Positions 4,243-10,202 of a DNA stretch of 20,000 nt are shown piece after piece (within the stretch, counting starts at the first letter, position 1; the number at the start of each line of letters is the position of its first letter). The translations under genes and the position numbers were made by a program. Source of the stretch: an uncultured virus (IMG/VR IMGVR_UViG_3300007597_000002) (Duplodnaviria; Heunggongvirae; Uroviricota; Caudoviricetes); the IMG/VR virus record IMGVR_UViG_3300007597_000002. The stretch is one strand, 5' to 3'. The notes below the pieces were generated by a model, which did no database searches, was not told where the DNA came from, and saw nothing but the letters and a program-made list of their open reading frames with translations.

Positions 4243-4665
4243 ATGTGGACATATCAAAATATCATTGTTGAAGAATTACCCGAATGTGTTGGCTTTGTTT
4301 ATTTAATTACGAACAAAGCCAACAGTCGTATGTATGTGGGGAAGAAACTATCAAAGTTTTCTAAAACATCCTACAAAATGGTCACATTAAAAAATGGGAC
4401 TAAGAAACGAAAGAAAATCAAATCTAAGATAGATTCTGATTGGTTAGATTATTATGGTTCCAGCGAAGAACTAAATAAAGATATACAGTCTCTGGGTAAG
4501 GAATCCTTTACTCGAGAGATTTTATTCTTTTGTAAATCAAAGGCTGAGTGTTCTTATATCGAGGCACGAGAGCAATTTGCAAGGAAAGTACTAGAGTCCG
4601 ATGCATACTATAATGGACAGATATCTGTTCGAGTGCATGGATCTCATATAAAAAATAAACTATGA
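4243..4665 (+). CDS. GIY-YIG superfamily nuclease (stand-alone catalytic domain)
   Basis: GFVYLITN...MYVGKK (GIY-YIG variant), DWLDYYGSS, conserved E (YIEARE) and YYN. Confidence 0.75.
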   Translation: MWTYQNIIVEELPECVGFVYLITNKANSRMYVGKKLSKFSKTSYKMVTLKNGTKKRKKIKSKIDSDWLDYYGSSEELNKDIQSLGKESFTREILFFCKSKAECSYIEAREQFARKVLESDAYYNGQISVRVHGSHIKNKL

Positions 4666-5813
4666 CATATCTACTATTCGCAGTAGCATTATCCCTTTCA
4701 GCTGTTGCAGCATGGTACGCCATTGCTGGACTTTGCGCAATTTTTGCTGCAGCAGTGATACCGATTGCCATTATGGGTTCTCTGTTAGAAGCAGCAAAAC
4801 TTGTAGTTGCATCATGGCTTTATAGAAACTGGAATGAAATTCCAAAACTTATGAAGTCATATTTCACAGTATCATTAGTAATTTTGATGTTGTTAACTTC
4901 TATGGGTATCTTTGGTTTCTTATCAAAAGCCCACTTAGATCAAGCAATACCAACAGGTGATGTTCAATCAAAGTTAGCTCTCATAGATGAAAAGATAAAA
5001 ACCGAAAAGGAGAATATCAATGCAAGCCGTAAAGAACTTACTCAACTCGATGCTCAAGTGGATCAAACCCTCAGCAGAACAACCGAAGCCAGTGGAGCCG
5101 ATCGTTCCATCTCCATCCGCAGAGGACAGCAAAAAGACAGAGCCAGAATCCTTACCGAAATCGGTGCAGCGCAAACCAAGATCGCCAAGTACAACGAAGA
5201 ACGTGCCCCGATCGCCAGCGAAGTCCGTAAAGTCGAAGCCGAAGTCGGTCCAATAAAATACATTGCTGCAGTATTGTATGGTGATAATCCAGAAACAGAC
5301 ATATTAGAAAAAGCTGTTCGTTTCGTTACAATGCTTATCGTAGTAGTGTTTGATCCACTGGCTGTACTATTATTGATAGCAGCAAACTGGAATCTTTCAC
5401 GTAGTAATAAAAAAGAAATAATTGATGCTGGAACTTTACCTGCTGAAGAACCACCAAAAGATCATATTTTAAATATAGAAGATAATATCGAGTCTGAAGA
5501 TAAAGTTACACCTATTCAGACCGATACTATAACAGAAGAAGATCTTGCTGTAACAGAACAGACTCATACGAAAGATTGGGAGCCAGAGTTATTTAATACT
5601 CTCCCGAATACCTACGTGACTCCTAAAGCAAATCACTTTATGACAAGCGTAAGAGAATTTCTTAAACCGAACAGAGATACTGCTCCAGGAGTTTCAGTTA
5701 AGACTATTGAGTATGATTCTGCAGGAAGAAGGATTACTCCTACAACTGAAGAAGAACGAGCTAAAACTATAGAAAAAGAAGTGGAAGATTTGCAAGACAA
5801 AAAACCTAAATAG
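4662..5813 (+). CDS. Multi-pass membrane protein with central coiled coil and acidic disordered C-terminus
   Basis: Three or four N-terminal hydrophobic segments, a heptad-rich region (residues ~100-195), a further TM (FVTMLIVVVFDPLAVLLLIAA) and an E/T/P-rich tail. ATGA overlap with the upstream gene. Confidence 0.85.
   Translation: MTYLLFAVALSLSAVAAWYAIAGLCAIFAAAVIPIAIMGSLLEAAKLVVASWLYRNWNEIPKLMKSYFTVSLVILMLLTSMGIFGFLSKAHLDQAIPTGDVQSKLALIDEKIKTEKENINASRKELTQLDAQVDQTLSRTTEASGADRSISIRRGQQKDRARILTEIGAAQTKIAKYNEERAPIASEVRKVEAEVGPIKYIAAVLYGDNPETDILEKAVRFVTMLIVVVFDPLAVLLLIAANWNLSRSNKKEIIDAGTLPAEEPPKDHILNIEDNIESEDKVTPIQTDTITEEDLAVTEQTHTKDWEPELFNTLPNTYVTPKANHFMTSVREFLKPNRDTAPGVSVKTIEYDSAGRRITPTTEEERAKTIEKEVEDLQDKKPK
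5020..5256 (+). CDS. Probable overprinted (+1 frame) gene: 78-aa basic Pro/Ser/Lys-rich protein with N-terminal amphipathic helix
   Basis: AAGGAG RBS at 5007-5012, 7 nt before ATG 5020. Host-frame codons shift to C-ending (GCC/ATC/ACC/GTC/TCC) across this interval and revert after the TAA at 5254-5256. Confidence 0.65.
   Translation: MQAVKNLLNSMLKWIKPSAEQPKPVEPIVPSPSAEDSKKTEPESLPKSVQRKPRSPSTTKNVPRSPAKSVKSKPKSVQ
5805..5812 (+). promoter_or_regulatory. Possible T4-type late promoter (CCTAAATA)
   Basis: TAAATA core at the end of the upstream gene, ~30 nt before ATG 5844. Confidence 0.35.
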
Positions 5814-5843
5814 ATCATAAGAATAACTATATGGGTTTAGCAA

Positions 5844-6401
5844 ATGGCAGAAATCAAAGTAGAAGCAAAACCTCTTTCTCGTTCTGAGAAAGAAGCACAA
5901 ATCAAAGACAAAGCGGGGATGGTAATCTGCATTTTAGCAGCATTACTAGCCATCAACACACTTGTTGGTGGATCAAACTCAAGCAAAATCCTAAACAACA
6001 CAATCGAAGCCAACAACACTTGGGCATTTTATCAAGCAAAGTCTATTAAGCAGACTTTAGCAGAAATGGCATATGACGATGCAGTTCGTGCCAATGATAA
6101 GAAAAAGTCAGAAGTACTAAAAAGCAAAATTGACAGATATGAAACCGATCCAAAAACTGGAGAGGGTAAAGTTGAATTGATGGCAAAGGCTAGAGGATTA
6201 GAAGCTGAACGATCAGTAGCTAAACAGCGCAGTCCTTTCTATACTTACGCAGGCAGTTTACTACAAATAGCAATTGTTTTATTGACAGCTAGTATTCTAG
6301 CAGTTAATCAAAATATGTTTAAAGCCAGTGTTGCAGTCGGAGCACTTGGAGCCTTTATTATGTCTCAGGCAGTTTGGTTATGGATTCCATTGATGATTTA
6401 A
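5844..6401 (+). CDS. DUF4337-like membrane protein
   Basis: TM (ICILAALLAI), NNTWAFYQAKSIKQ motif recalled from DUF4337, helical linker, then LLQIAIVLLTASIL and a final TM. Confidence 0.75.
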   Translation: MAEIKVEAKPLSRSEKEAQIKDKAGMVICILAALLAINTLVGGSNSSKILNNTIEANNTWAFYQAKSIKQTLAEMAYDDAVRANDKKKSEVLKSKIDRYETDPKTGEGKVELMAKARGLEAERSVAKQRSPFYTYAGSLLQIAIVLLTASILAVNQNMFKASVAVGALGAFIMSQAVWLWIPLMI

Positions 6402-6419
6402 CATAATCAGGAGAATGTT

Positions 6420-7034
6420 GTGGATCCGATTACTATTGGGTTGGCTTTTACTGCAGCCCAATCAGCAGTTGGTTACATCAAGCAAGCCATTGCATTGGGT
6501 AAGGACATAAACAGTCTATCAGGACAGTTTAGTAAGTTCTTCGAATCTTCAGATGCTATACATCGTGAACGAGCAAAGGTAAAAGCAAAGGCTAGTCGAC
6601 TCGGCAAGACTGATGCTGAGTTGGGTCATGAAGCCTTGCAAATCGCTATGCATAGCGATGCTCTACGTCAAGCAGAGCGTGATCTTAAAGATATGATTCT
6701 TTGGCAATTGGGTAAGCCTGAACTGTGGGAACACATGATCAAGGAACGTACTAGATTGTTCAAGGAACGTGCAGAAGCAGAGCGTGAAGAAGCTGAGCGT
6801 GTATTAGCCCACAAAAAGAAAATGGCTGATATGTTTATTTTTGGCATGTATTTTCTAGCGGTATCTGCTATTGTATTTGCATTTATTATGGGTGGTGTTG
6901 GTATTTATGCTCAAGCAGAAGAAAAAAGAATTTATGAACAAAAGCTGGCACAAAGAAATCTAGTTCTGCGCCAGCAACAAAAAGAACGTGAAGCACGTGA
7001 AAAGAAAGAACGTGAAGATTATGCTAAAAATTAA
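6420..7034 (+). CDS. Helical protein with C-terminal TM ('MDP' paralog 1)
   Basis: GTG start after an AGGAG RBS. N-terminus MDPITIGLAFTAAQSAVGYIK, coiled coil, TM (MFIFGMYFLAVSAIVFAFIMGGVGIYA) and charged tail. Confidence 0.85.
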   Translation: MDPITIGLAFTAAQSAVGYIKQAIALGKDINSLSGQFSKFFESSDAIHRERAKVKAKASRLGKTDAELGHEALQIAMHSDALRQAERDLKDMILWQLGKPELWEHMIKERTRLFKERAEAEREEAERVLAHKKKMADMFIFGMYFLAVSAIVFAFIMGGVGIYAQAEEKRIYEQKLAQRNLVLRQQQKEREAREKKEREDYAKN

Positions 7035-7046
7035 AGGATATGAAGT

Positions 7047-7160
7047 ATGCACTTCAACATAATTATTACAACGAACGATTTAATATTCCTTTTATCTACG
7101 ATACCCTTATTGATGGTTTTTACTGTAATGTTTAAAGACTGGCTTAAAGATCGGAAATAG
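7047..7160 (+). CDS. 37-aa single-TM peptide (not in ORF track)
   Basis: MHFNIIITTNDLIFLLSTIPLLMVFTVMFKDWLKDRK. AAGGA lies upstream and the ORF fills the gap between genes. Confidence 0.6.
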   Translation: MHFNIIITTNDLIFLLSTIPLLMVFTVMFKDWLKDRK

Positions 7161-7166
7161 AGTAAG

Positions 7167-7307
7167 ATGTATGAATGGATCTTAGCGTTAGCACTTGCGC
7201 AAGAACCTGTTAAAAAATGGCCAGAATGGGAATGTGTGCGATGGACATGGACTGGTGATGTTTATGAACGTCGTGTAGTTTGTTTAGAGTGGAGAAGGAG
7301 GAAATAG
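7167..7307 (+). CDS. 46-aa Trp-rich peptide with Cys pair (not in ORF track)
   Basis: MYEWILALALAQEPVKKWPEWECVRWTWTGDVYERRVVCLEWRRRK. The stop TAG abuts the next ATG at 7308. Confidence 0.7.
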   Translation: MYEWILALALAQEPVKKWPEWECVRWTWTGDVYERRVVCLEWRRRK

Positions 7308-8078
7308 ATGGATCCTCTAACACTCTTTGCACTGGCCAATGGAGCAGTTTCTGCGATCAAGGCTGGGTGTAAATTATACAAAGATATCAAAGGTGCAGCT
7401 GGAGATATAAAGGATGTGCTCAAAGATCTGGATGAGCAGTTTCATGGTAACTATGCAGCAAAGGGAAAGAAACCACCACCCGAAGCAATTAAACAGTTTA
7501 ATGAAGAAAAATCTAGAATAAAAGATTTAAACAAGAAAGACACTGGTGACATTTATTTTGAACTTGGTCAACATCTTGGTGCTTTCTTTGACAACCAAGC
7601 AAAGTGTATAGCAGTATTTGAGGCAGAAGAAAAACGATCATATGATTTATATACAGGTGATGATTCTCTAGGAAATCGTGCTCTTCAAAGAGTTTTGATG
7701 AAAAAGAAACTTGAGCAGATGGAAGTTGAGTTGCGTGAGATAATGATTTATCAAAGCCCACCTGAATTGGGTGCATTATGGACTGAGGTGTTACAACAAT
7801 CTAAGGTATTAAATGCAAGACAGTCTGCGGCACTCAAGCGTCATATTCAGATGCAAATGCAGCATGATAGAGAACATGCAGAATTGATGAGAAAGATAAA
7901 AACATTTTTTAAATGGTTTGCTATTTTTATGGGTGTGATTTTTCTTACAATGTCTGTAATGTGGTTTGTGGTACAAGACAGGATACAAAAGTATCCACAG
8001 TTGGGGACTGATTGGGTTCCTAAAACTGATCAACAAAGAAGACAAGAAGCCATGCCCAAACAATATATTGGACGCTAA
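7308..8078 (+). CDS. Helical protein with C-terminal TM ('MDP' paralog 2)
   Basis: GGAGG RBS. N-terminus MDPLTLFALANGAVSAIK, ELREIMIYQSPPELGALW segment and TM (FFKWFAIFMGVIFLTMSVMWFVV). Confidence 0.85.
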   Translation: MDPLTLFALANGAVSAIKAGCKLYKDIKGAAGDIKDVLKDLDEQFHGNYAAKGKKPPPEAIKQFNEEKSRIKDLNKKDTGDIYFELGQHLGAFFDNQAKCIAVFEAEEKRSYDLYTGDDSLGNRALQRVLMKKKLEQMEVELREIMIYQSPPELGALWTEVLQQSKVLNARQSAALKRHIQMQMQHDREHAELMRKIKTFFKWFAIFMGVIFLTMSVMWFVVQDRIQKYPQLGTDWVPKTDQQRRQEAMPKQYIGR

Positions 8079-9182: not shown

Positions 9183-9572
9183 ATGGCTTACTCAGACAAA
9201 GTTATTGATCATTATGAAAATCCACGTAACGTGGGTTCTCTAGACAAAAACGATCCAACAGTTGGTACTGGTATGGTTGGTGCACCAGCATGTGGTGATG
9301 TGATGAAATTACAAATACAGGTAGATGAAGATGGTATTATTAGAGATGCTAAGTTCAAGACATATGGCTGTGGTTCAGCAATCGCCAGTTCGTCGCTGGT
9401 TACAGAGTGGGTTAAGGGTATGCATATTGATGATGCTGTTAACTTACGCAACTCTCAGATTGCCGAAGAACTAGCATTACCTCCAGTTAAGATTCACTGC
9501 TCTATACTTGCGGAAGATGCAATCAAAGCAGCAGTAAACGACTATAAAGAAAAACATGATCTCGTTAACTGA
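9183..9572 (+). CDS. iscU: Fe-S cluster scaffold protein IscU
   Basis: MAYSDKVIDHYENPRNVG, GAPACGDVM, KTYGCGSAIASSS and LPPVKIHC (HscA-binding LPPVK). All three Cys are present. Confidence 0.97.
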   Translation: MAYSDKVIDHYENPRNVGSLDKNDPTVGTGMVGAPACGDVMKLQIQVDEDGIIRDAKFKTYGCGSAIASSSLVTEWVKGMHIDDAVNLRNSQIAEELALPPVKIHCSILAEDAIKAAVNDYKEKHDLVN

Positions 9573-9882
9573 AAAAGCATACGAGAAAGTTAAATCCCAA
9601 CTTCAGAAACGTGGTAAGGGTATTGGCATTCGACTCGGTGTAAGGACTACTGGTTGCAGTGGTCTAGCATATACCATGGAATATGTTGACAAGTATGAGG
9701 CTGAAGTTGGTGTGACTAACTACGCTCAAAAAGATTTTGCAGTTCTTGTAGATATAAAGAGTGATGCTTATCTAAATGGATTAACCATGGATTGGGTACG
9801 TAATGGGCTCAATGAAGGATTTGATTTTAGTAATCCAAACGAAAGAGACCGCTGTGGTTGCGGAGAAAGTTTCAGAATATGA
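9556..9882 (+). CDS. iscA: A-type Fe-S carrier IscA
   Basis: [28 protein letters not shown] and CGCGESF. Confidence 0.93.
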
Positions 9883-10202
9883 TAACAATAACAGAGTCAG
9901 CAAAGACAAAAATTCTAGATCTTTTCGCAGAGGAAGGTAATCCTGACTTATGTTTAAGAACATTCGTACAAGGTGGTGGCTGCAGCGGAATGAGTTATGG
10001 ATTTACATTCGATGAGGTAATGAACGAAGATGATTTTGAAATACCTCTTGAGAAAACTAAAATACTAATAGACTCAATGAGCATGCAATATCTAACAGGA
10101 GCAACTGTGGATTACAAAGAAGATATACAAGGCTCACAATTTGTCATAACCAATCCAAATGCTCAATCAACCTGCGGATGTGGAAGTTCGTTTAGCGTAT
10201 GA
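9879..10202 (+). CDS. erpA: A-type Fe-S carrier, ErpA-like
   Basis: [39 protein letters not shown] and [23 protein letters not shown]. Start corrected to ATG 9879 (ATGA overlap). Confidence 0.9.

Follow-up and report, generated by a model that had tools for sequence, protein, structure and literature searches.

A probable overprinted +1-frame gene in the coiled-coil region of a membrane-protein gene of freshwater T4-like phages

We analyzed a stretch of 20,000 nucleotides (hereafter the window) from a 57-kb contig of an uncultured member of the Caudoviricetes (IMG/VR record IMGVR_UViG_3300007597_000002). The subject of this study is a short open reading frame (ORF) at positions 5020-5256 of the window, which lies entirely within, and in the +1 frame of, a gene for a multi-pass membrane protein (hereafter the host gene and host protein). 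The comparative patterns described below suggest that this nested ORF is a real, selected protein-coding gene, overprinted on the region of the host gene that encodes a coiled-coil hairpin; we give this reading a probability of about 0.8. Two freshwater T4-like clades, namely clade A, to which the window belongs, and clade C, share conserved start signals, an open frame with a conserved end point, and a fall in synonymous variation that is limited to the overlap. The same signals are absent from a marine sister clade (clade B) and from two lineages that have lost the ORF.

Results and Discussion

The Nested ORF and Codon Usage in the Window

The nested ORF overlies the distal half of the predicted host hairpin, and the codon usage of the host gene changes over it. 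Codons ending in C account for 31 of the 78 host codons within the ORF, as against 15 of 119 upstream and 14 of 185 downstream, and usage is back to the flanking type right past the nested stop (ATT GCT GCA GTA at 5262). A scan of 11,499 sliding windows of 78 codons, covering all 81 ORFs of the contig, ranked this patch first for the fraction of codons ending in C (C3), with 0.41 against a mean of 0.141 (standard deviation 0.052); the best value in any other gene was 0.32. The C-rich patch is thus beyond chance. Given the codon usage of the flanks, about 4.2 stops would be predicted in the +1 frame of the patch (per-sequence P mostly 0.002-0.1).

An earlier, sequence-only reading of this DNA had reported the host ORF, the +1 ORF and an AAGGAG Shine-Dalgarno (SD) motif seven nucleotides upstream of its ATG, together with the shift toward C-ending host codons and its reversal after the nested stop. 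Our coordinates and counts agree with that description throughout.

Conservation of the Start and the Frame in Clade A

Two scans of IMG/VR yielded 160 clade A loci (161 with the window), homologues with 56-100% protein identity. Pooled, they represent 90 distinct sequences across the first 760 nucleotides of the gene; counts at individual sites are taken from the first set of 62. The nested ATG is present in all 90 sequences, and the hexamer upstream of it reads AAGGAG in 53, AAGGAA in 35, and AAGGAT and AAAGAA in one each. In 89 of the 90, the +1 frame stays open over 71 codons or more (range 71-103). It comprises 78 codons in 41 sequences and 75 in 38, with 81 codons in three, 92 and 85 in two each, and 71, 88 and 103 once each; in the one remaining sequence it spans only nine codons.

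Individual sites around the start behave very differently from their neighbors. The host Lys codon that forms part of the SD motif (K116) is AAG in 62 of 62 sequences, whereas the two Lys codons farther upstream, K104 and K111, are divided between alternatives 31:31 and 33:29. The T of the nested ATG is likewise kept in 62 of 62, host codon N120 being AAT (or GAT in two sequences) and never ending in C, in contrast to N118, where AAT and AAC occur 44 and 18 times. Between the SD motif and the ATG, the spacer codons 117-119 vary freely; beyond the ATG, R123 is CGT and K124 is AAA in every one of the 62. A +1 stop stands immediately upstream of the nested ATG in 15 of these sequences. Such a site-level pattern is the one expected of a translation start.

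A 14-codon insertion at the hairpin tip, found in L010 and L022, is rich in Pro, Thr and Val when read in +1, and the frame stays open. Median C3 in the clade is 0.33 in the patch and 0.11 in the flanks. In a sequence found identical on two contigs (L191 and L192) and falling within clade A, the SD motif has decayed to AAAGAA, the +1 frame carries four stops, and patch C3 is the lowest in the clade at 0.22.

Synonymous Variation in the Host Frame

We compared pairwise synonymous differences in the host frame at sites where both members of a pair share the amino acid, scaled to the pair's own rate for each degeneracy class. These statistics are pairwise rather than tree-based, and because the pairs are phylogenetically non-independent, the p-values are indicative. 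In windows of 15 codons, the ratio of observed to expected differences (obs/exp) in clade A falls to 0.27-0.87 only across 5007-5247. Elsewhere in the gene it is 0.94-1.5 wherever enough pairs could be compared, including flanking stretches in which host amino-acid conservation reaches 0.95-0.99. Three sparse C-terminal windows (about 140 pairs each) dip to 0.57-0.77; further low windows around residues 335-339, where few sequences are aligned, are treated as a small-sample effect.

Considered by column, the median is 0.36 inside the overlap (75 columns) and 1.23 outside it (256 columns; Mann-Whitney p = 2e-17, 89 sequences). Among columns with at least 90% amino-acid identity the values are 0.36 and 1.18 (p = 4.5e-9), and columns with a single codon number 11 of 47 inside as against 1 of 108 outside. 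The two minima of the profile fall on the predicted helix and the basic tail of the nested product (obs/exp 0.27-0.57 in the tail). The weaker middle coincides with its variable linker, where synonymous constraint is weakest (0.63-0.87) and which lies over the host hairpin tip.

The sequence-only reading had argued that homologues of a genuine overprinted gene in the coiled-coil region should retain the internal ribosome-binding site and ATG, be free of +1 stops, and vary little at synonymous sites across the overlap. The comparative data support that proposal, with AAGGAG or AAGGAA in 88 of the 90 clade A sequences beside the invariant ATG, the long open frame, and a suppression that lies exactly over the overlap.

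Parts of 4647-6401, among them 4796-5263, 4669-5090 and 4923-5186, are represented in contigs of four freshwater metatranscriptome studies; contigs from RNA libraries are blind to start, strand, level and translation and may reflect DNA carry-over, and we count them as no support. One of these contigs, from a related strain (23 differences), covers 4796-5263; it matches exactly as far as 5263 and then continues for 149 nucleotides unlike the window. That the match ends shortly after the nested stop is consistent with the patch holding the best-conserved DNA in the gene.

Distribution and History of the Nested Frame

Clade C was found through one match to a profile of the nested protein, which pointed to another 46 IMG/VR loci; the analysis covered 35 distinct sequences. 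Its host genes, also from freshwater, share 45-65% identity with that of the window across their N-terminal 250 residues. An open +1 frame of 54-92 codons is present in 34 of the 35, and the number of stops, predicted at 2.8 by flank usage, is 0.03 (median P 0.01). Between residues 128 and 153, obs/exp falls to 0.40-0.71. Clade C shows no C3 enrichment (0.12-0.26 in the patch vs 0.10-0.30 in the flanks), and its nested product is rich in Trp, Leu and Lys, not in Pro and Ser.

The marine sister clade B, of the type of Pelagibacter phage Mosig, lacks these signals. In none of its 59 distinct sequences is the +1 frame open; the equivalent 81 codons hold 8.1 +1 stops on average, the longest open run is 39 codons, and C3 is 0.04-0.12. 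For most of the coiled-coil region its obs/exp is about 1.0-1.37; around residues 178-193 it falls to 0.66-0.81. The value of 0.66, at host residues of about 183-193 of L081 (a member of this clade), lies on an invariant EAEVGPIKY motif that has no open alternative frame.

A maximum-likelihood tree of 45 host proteins, midpoint-rooted in agreement with two distant outgroup phages, places clades A and C together (support 89/98) and recovers A as one clade (99/99), with B and the two distant phages outside. The ORF-less lineages fall inside A (L192) and inside C (L281), on branches of 0.46 and 1.03 as compared to a median of 0.052. We infer that the +1 frame arose in the common ancestor of A and C. 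The two ORF-less lineages are read as two losses, after which constraint would have relaxed; their exact placements are uncertain because the branches are long. Since clade C keeps the +1 ORF without enrichment in C, the nested ORF appears to be older than the C-rich patch, and the Pro/Ser/Lys tail and the C-ending host codons were probably a later speciality of clade A.

One more distant case deserves mention. Flavobacterium phage vB_FspM_immuto has a +1 ORF of 72 amino acids at the same relative position (L082:2233-2451), starting at host codon 123 and with a basic N-terminus. It may have arisen by chance, or it may be a nested frame that is older or of independent origin; immuto genomes are too alike to gauge its conservation.

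Weighing the Coding Interpretation

Several observations weigh against a selected nested gene or reduce what can be claimed for it. When synonymous codons are permuted within the patch (null B), the +1 frame is open with P of about 0.45. Because the codon make-up of the patch suffices, an open frame in a single sequence is not independent evidence and is weak by itself; stop avoidance beyond composition is not shown by this null, and the weight of the argument comes from the comparative data. The start is also less defined in clade C, where the ATG at residue 130 (equivalent to Met11) is present in 32 of 35 sequences and that at residue 120 (equivalent to Met1) in 22 of 35, and many sequences there have no clear SD motif.

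The kinds of change that are missing raise a further question. A-to-G and G-to-A changes that are synonymous in the host and would swap Lys and Arg in +1 are nearly absent between 5025 and 5245. Inside the patch, GAA is fixed at E125, E142, E166, E192 and E194, and AAA at K124 and K158. By contrast, K104, E110, K111 and E117, which lie just upstream of it, switch freely. This hints either that Lys is specifically required or that a nucleotide-level constraint is added. A BLOSUM-based test of seen against unseen host-synonymous variants gave p = 0.014 for the +1 frame and 0.046 for the antisense frame and did not separate the two. Lastly, most of the nested product is of low complexity and disordered, and with six unnamed ORF calls as its only relatives (see below), any function proposed for it is drawn from composition.

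These points bear on four alternatives, of which the one that survives best is an element acting at the nucleotide level. Under this explanation, about 240 nucleotides would be conserved for an RNA structure, for a promoter or regulatory site within the gene, or for a sequence that serves protein binding or packaging, and the +1 ORF would be a by-product. Synonymous suppression alone is silent on what is constrained, and the avoidance of even conservative changes of the Lys/Arg type is not obviously predicted by coding constraint. Yet the patch folds no better than its shuffles (z +0.86 for the sense and +0.38 for the antisense strand) and has no Rfam match at E <= 1. The constraint, moreover, sets in at the SD motif, is lifted over the 7-nucleotide spacer, returns at the ATG and wanes at the stop. 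Despite a strong difference in nucleotide composition here, clades A and C are both stop-free in +1, and the insertion in L010 and L022 is tolerated with the frame intact. We consider such an element very improbable.

A smaller chance again is given to selection on host codon usage, in which C-ending codons would serve the speed or accuracy of translating the hairpin, leaving the +1 frame and its protein as side effects. Enrichment in C3 does by itself open the +1 frame, and the antisense frame as well (null B), and the enrichment falls on the portion of the host protein that is best conserved. Against this stands clade C, which has the same hairpin and a suppressed, open +1 frame in the absence of C3 enrichment, as well as clade B, which has the hairpin at low C3. 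Equally conserved host flanks are unsuppressed, and N120, inside a C-rich patch, avoids a C-ending codon in every sequence and so preserves the ATG.

Programmed frameshifting out of the host frame, which would produce a truncated, membrane-anchored fusion of the first three transmembrane segments (TM1-3), part of the coil and the basic tail, seems more unlikely still. SD-like sequences can stimulate frameshifting. One metagenome prediction of 120 amino acids (P0123) follows the host frame as far as '...SQLDAQV' and then the nested frame to its normal end; it may represent a contig indel or a natural frameshift variant. This is, however, a single record, and a frameshift does not account for an ATG kept in 90 of 90 sequences at ideal SD spacing or for +1 stops directly before that ATG in 15 of 62. 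No slippery site was seen, although no search was aimed at one.

The least credible alternative is that the constrained frame is the antisense one whose codons are in register with those of the host: it is stop-free over the patch in 56 of 62 clade A sequences, and host third-position changes are non-synonymous there too, but it has no ATG or GTG start (only TTG codons mirroring host Gln CAA), its ends are variable, six clade A sequences interrupt it with an internal stop, and over residues 130-182 in clade C it is open in 12 of 34 sequences where the +1 frame is stop-free in 34 of 34. Clade C is accordingly the decisive discriminator between these two frames.

Predicted Properties of the Nested Product

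The nested product in the window has 78 amino acids, an isoelectric point of 10.3, a net charge of +10, no Cys and 13 Pro. An AlphaFold2 (AF2) model built from 54 sequences predicts a helix at residues 2-15 and disorder elsewhere, with a mean predicted local distance difference test score (pLDDT) of 64. The hydrophobic moment of residues 2-16 is 0.66, a value matched by 0.12% of 5000 shuffles. An acidic, Pro-rich linker follows, then a polybasic tail at residues 46-78 (Table 1) in which K47, K52, K60 and K71 are invariant. The description given by the sequence-only reading, an amphipathic helix with a disordered Pro/Ser/Lys tail, has therefore stood up well. No signal-like hydrophobic core was found in the nested product (maximum Kyte-Doolittle mean over 19 residues 0.06). 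Its mean column identity is 67%, as compared to a conservation of 0.74-0.99 in windows of the host protein.

Database searches returned little. The nested protein has no family in Pfam, PHROGs or NCBIfam and no match among PDB sequence profiles; its ESM Atlas scores (0.78) are below a useful level, and a word-index search of 5.8 billion predicted proteins gave no match. An exhaustive profile search of 1.84 billion representatives recovered only the six unnamed ORF calls mentioned above, in the same or a related nested frame, one of which is a frameshift chimera. For a divergent 99-amino-acid protein of the nested type (P0124), a scan of IMG/VR gave no relative.

From these properties a working model can be drawn, at graded strengths. 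Ribosomes would start internally at the AAGGAG and ATG on the mRNA of the host gene and make a free protein of 75-103 amino acids in clade A, 78 here. The product would be cytoplasmic and mostly disordered, consisting of the N-terminal amphipathic helix, the acidic Pro-rich linker and the polybasic tail. Its helix might dock on the inner face of the membrane while the basic tail binds a polyanion, for which DNA or RNA, anionic lipid and the acidic cytoplasmic tail of the host protein (net -11) are candidates; we hold this docking and binding function with low confidence. The nested and host proteins would then form a two-part membrane module made from one transcript. The sequence-only reading had suggested as possible roles a part in envelope remodelling or lysis, or that of a membrane-tethered basic DNA-binding peptide. 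More doubtful again is the fuller proposal that a gene born de novo encodes a polycation that docks through its helix and acts with the host protein, either as a DNA or RNA tether in replication or as a cationic, spanin-independent disruptor of the envelope.

The Host Protein

The host protein belongs to a family with at least 8000 homologues, none of which bears a functional name. Its hydrophobic segments lie at residues 1-53, 63-90 and 217-246. In an AF2 model built from 38 sequences (mean pLDDT 63), helices are predicted at residues 2-55 and 62-95 (transmembrane), 99-139, 143-206 and 212-252, and the C-terminal part is disordered. The hairpin is the confident part, with mean pLDDT of about 77-92 in blocks of 10 residues across residues 101-190. 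By the positive-inside rule (loop 53-66 has a net charge of +2, and an Arg/Lys cluster follows TM4), the hairpin is probably periplasmic, and the acidic tail formed by residues 246-383 would be cytoplasmic.

Profile matches relate the family remotely to two groups of membrane proteins. DUF4407 (PF14362) matches 17 of 38 family members (best E 2.8e-4) and Tetraspanin 25 of 38 (best E 3.8e-5), in both cases under the Pfam gathering score, and the host protein of the window itself has no DUF4407 match at E <= 0.1. A cluster of neighbors in the ESM Atlas is auto-named 'putative DUF4407'. We regard the host protein as remotely DUF4407/tetraspanin-like at a sub-threshold level. It resembles these four-TM proteins in its transmembrane helices and in the large helical loop between TM3 and TM4; it differs from established members in that all matches are below gathering scores, so membership is not established. 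To our knowledge, neither family carries a nested gene. Searches of PHROGs and NCBIfam gave no family for the host protein, and those of Pfam gave sub-threshold matches only. Against PDB sequence profiles there was a single match, to a designed coiled coil (E-value 0.34), and Foldseek searches with the host model found only generic coiled coils (Vipp1, SMC; E >= 0.08).

Table 1. Coordinates in the window of the putative nested gene, its predicted parts and adjacent features.
Feature	Position	Strand	Description
Putative nested +1-frame gene	5020-5256	+	78 codons plus TAA stop; spans host residues 120-198
Putative SD motif (AAGGAG) of nested gene	5007-5012	+	7 nucleotides upstream of ATG at 5020
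Predicted amphipathic helix, nested residues 2-15	5023-5064	+	AF2 helix, first-block pLDDT 84; obs/exp 0.34-0.53
Acidic Pro-rich variable linker, nested residues 18-45	5071-5154	+	6 Pro, 6 Asp+Glu, 3 Lys+Arg
Polybasic Ser/Pro/Lys tail, nested residues 46-78	5155-5253	+	10 Lys+Arg, 0 Asp+Glu, 6 Pro, 9 Ser+Thr
Host gene	4662-5813	+	ORF, 383 amino acids; multi-pass membrane protein with coiled-coil hairpin; 'hypothetical' in all sources
Predicted host coiled-coil hairpin, antiparallel, residues 99-206	4956-5279	+	AF2 helices 99-139 and 143-206
SegE-like GIY-YIG gene	4243-4665		Pfam PF19835, E 8e-31; 4-nucleotide overlap with start of host gene

Genomic Context

The genes around the nested ORF encode ThyX, the large and small subunits of a class I ribonucleotide reductase, a 2OG-Fe(II) oxygenase and the SegE-like GIY-YIG protein. 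Elsewhere the contig encodes a clamp-loader subunit, RegA, DNA ligase, a family B DNA polymerase, UvsX and a DnaB-like helicase, along with a Tet/JBP protein, an amino-acid:DNA transferase and a dCMP deaminase. The nested gene thus sits in a module of replication and nucleotide metabolism, not in a lysis cassette, and scans of the ORFs of the contig, which is part of a genome, against Pfam and PHROGs found no holin or endolysin family. Because the contig has genes of the former kind and no lysis genes were found on it, the context here argues against a role in lysis. The neighbors in two distant relatives point in the opposite direction: the host-gene homologue of Mosig comes after a glucosaminidase gene, and that of immuto is located five genes downstream of a holin.

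The GIY-YIG gene upstream is present in 80 of 80 clade A loci examined, at 71-100% identity. Being fixed in this way, it looks like a permanent resident rather than a sporadic homing endonuclease.

Two other sources of the C-rich patch were considered. Gene conversion driven by the GIY-YIG neighbor is unlikely given that gene's fixed presence. A recombined segment from a higher-GC relative, which the sequence-only reading had named as an alternative, is rejected: the patch is common to all of clade A, and that clade is monophyletic.

Downstream of the host gene, three consecutive genes in 5844-8078 encode coiled-coil proteins with hydrophobic segments (5844-6401, a DUF4337 protein; 6420-7034; and 7308-8078) and may form a cluster of membrane-associated proteins. 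The first two each adjoin the host gene in 25 of 80 loci. Farther along, 9556-9882 and 9858-10202 are adjacent, slightly overlapping paralogues of PHROG 17776. Outside the window but on the same contig, L245:13599-17246 encodes, in consecutive order, a Tet/JBP oxygenase, a glutamine-amidotransferase-like protein, an ORF of 212 amino acids and the amino-acid:DNA transferase (PF18724), a row that suggests hypermodified DNA bases in this phage. The contig also has auxiliary genes for a TctC-like solute-binding protein (L244:2508-3476), a ferritin-like protein (L245:9205-9648) and an Hsp20 protein (L246:11261-11800).

Comparison with Known Systems

The arrangement is like that of lambda Rz/Rz1, in that a gene for a small, Pro-rich product is contained entirely, and in the +1 frame, within a gene for a coiled-coil inner-membrane protein; Rz1 is embedded in +1 of Rz and has 10 Pro in 40 residues (PMC6139136). 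The sequence-only reading had nonetheless set the pair apart from Rz/Rz1, and rightly so. The nested product has 13 Pro in 78 residues and, unlike Rz1, lacks a signal peptide, a lipobox and Cys. Instead of the single N-terminal transmembrane domain (TMD) of the Rz i-spanin, the host protein has four hydrophobic segments and is multi-pass, and its hairpin lies between TM3 and TM4 and is followed by an acidic disordered tail, whereas an Rz-type coiled coil runs to the C-terminus. Position differs as well: the overlap covers host residues 120-198 of 383 (0.31-0.52 of the length), whereas about 70% of embedded spanins overlap from approximately 0.4-0.5 to 0.9-1.0 of the length (PMC6139136). There is, further, none of the holin or endolysin families sought on the contig that would accompany a spanin pair. 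To judge from the predicted proteins and gene order, the defining features of such a pair (lipoprotein signal, single-TMD i-spanin, lysis cassette) fail here.

The nested product can also be likened, by description only, to the phiKT gp28 'disruptin', a cationic lysis peptide, which it resembles in size class, charge and amphipathic helix (10.1101/515445). It departs from the disruptin in being helical only at residues 2-15, with the rest disordered and Pro-rich, and in being encoded by an overprinted gene within a replication and nucleotide-metabolism module instead of beside lysis genes.

In more general terms, the nested ORF conforms to what is seen in overprinted viral genes. Its frame is the novel one, of narrower phylogenetic range than the ancestral frame and faster-evolving, and its product is rich in Pro, Ser, Lys and Glu; a pattern of disorder-promoting residues in such genes is attributed to Rancurel et al. 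in PMC6139136. It is unlike usual overprinting in occurring in a large T4-like double-stranded DNA phage (about 160-175 kb, judged by related contigs), in which coding space is not tight.

Significance

Phage annotation routinely misses genes that are wholly embedded, out of frame, in others. The one described here is probably a previously unannotated overlapping gene of abundant freshwater T4-like phages, within a theme of embedded genes that is already known. Our literature search was general (overlapping genes, spanins, disruptin) and the host family is nameless, so absence from print cannot be claimed. As a case, it is unusually clean: one clade lacks the gene, another has it but not the compositional signature, and on two long branches it was apparently lost. 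It may therefore serve as a natural system for the birth of a protein on a conserved coiled coil, for the effect of dual coding on codon usage, and for the reach of comparative signals. It also offers a concrete candidate for a small cationic factor that binds membranes or nucleic acids in uncultured freshwater phages. If the proposed partnership with the host protein is true, it would be a new two-in-one membrane module whose parts are forced to co-evolve nucleotide by nucleotide.

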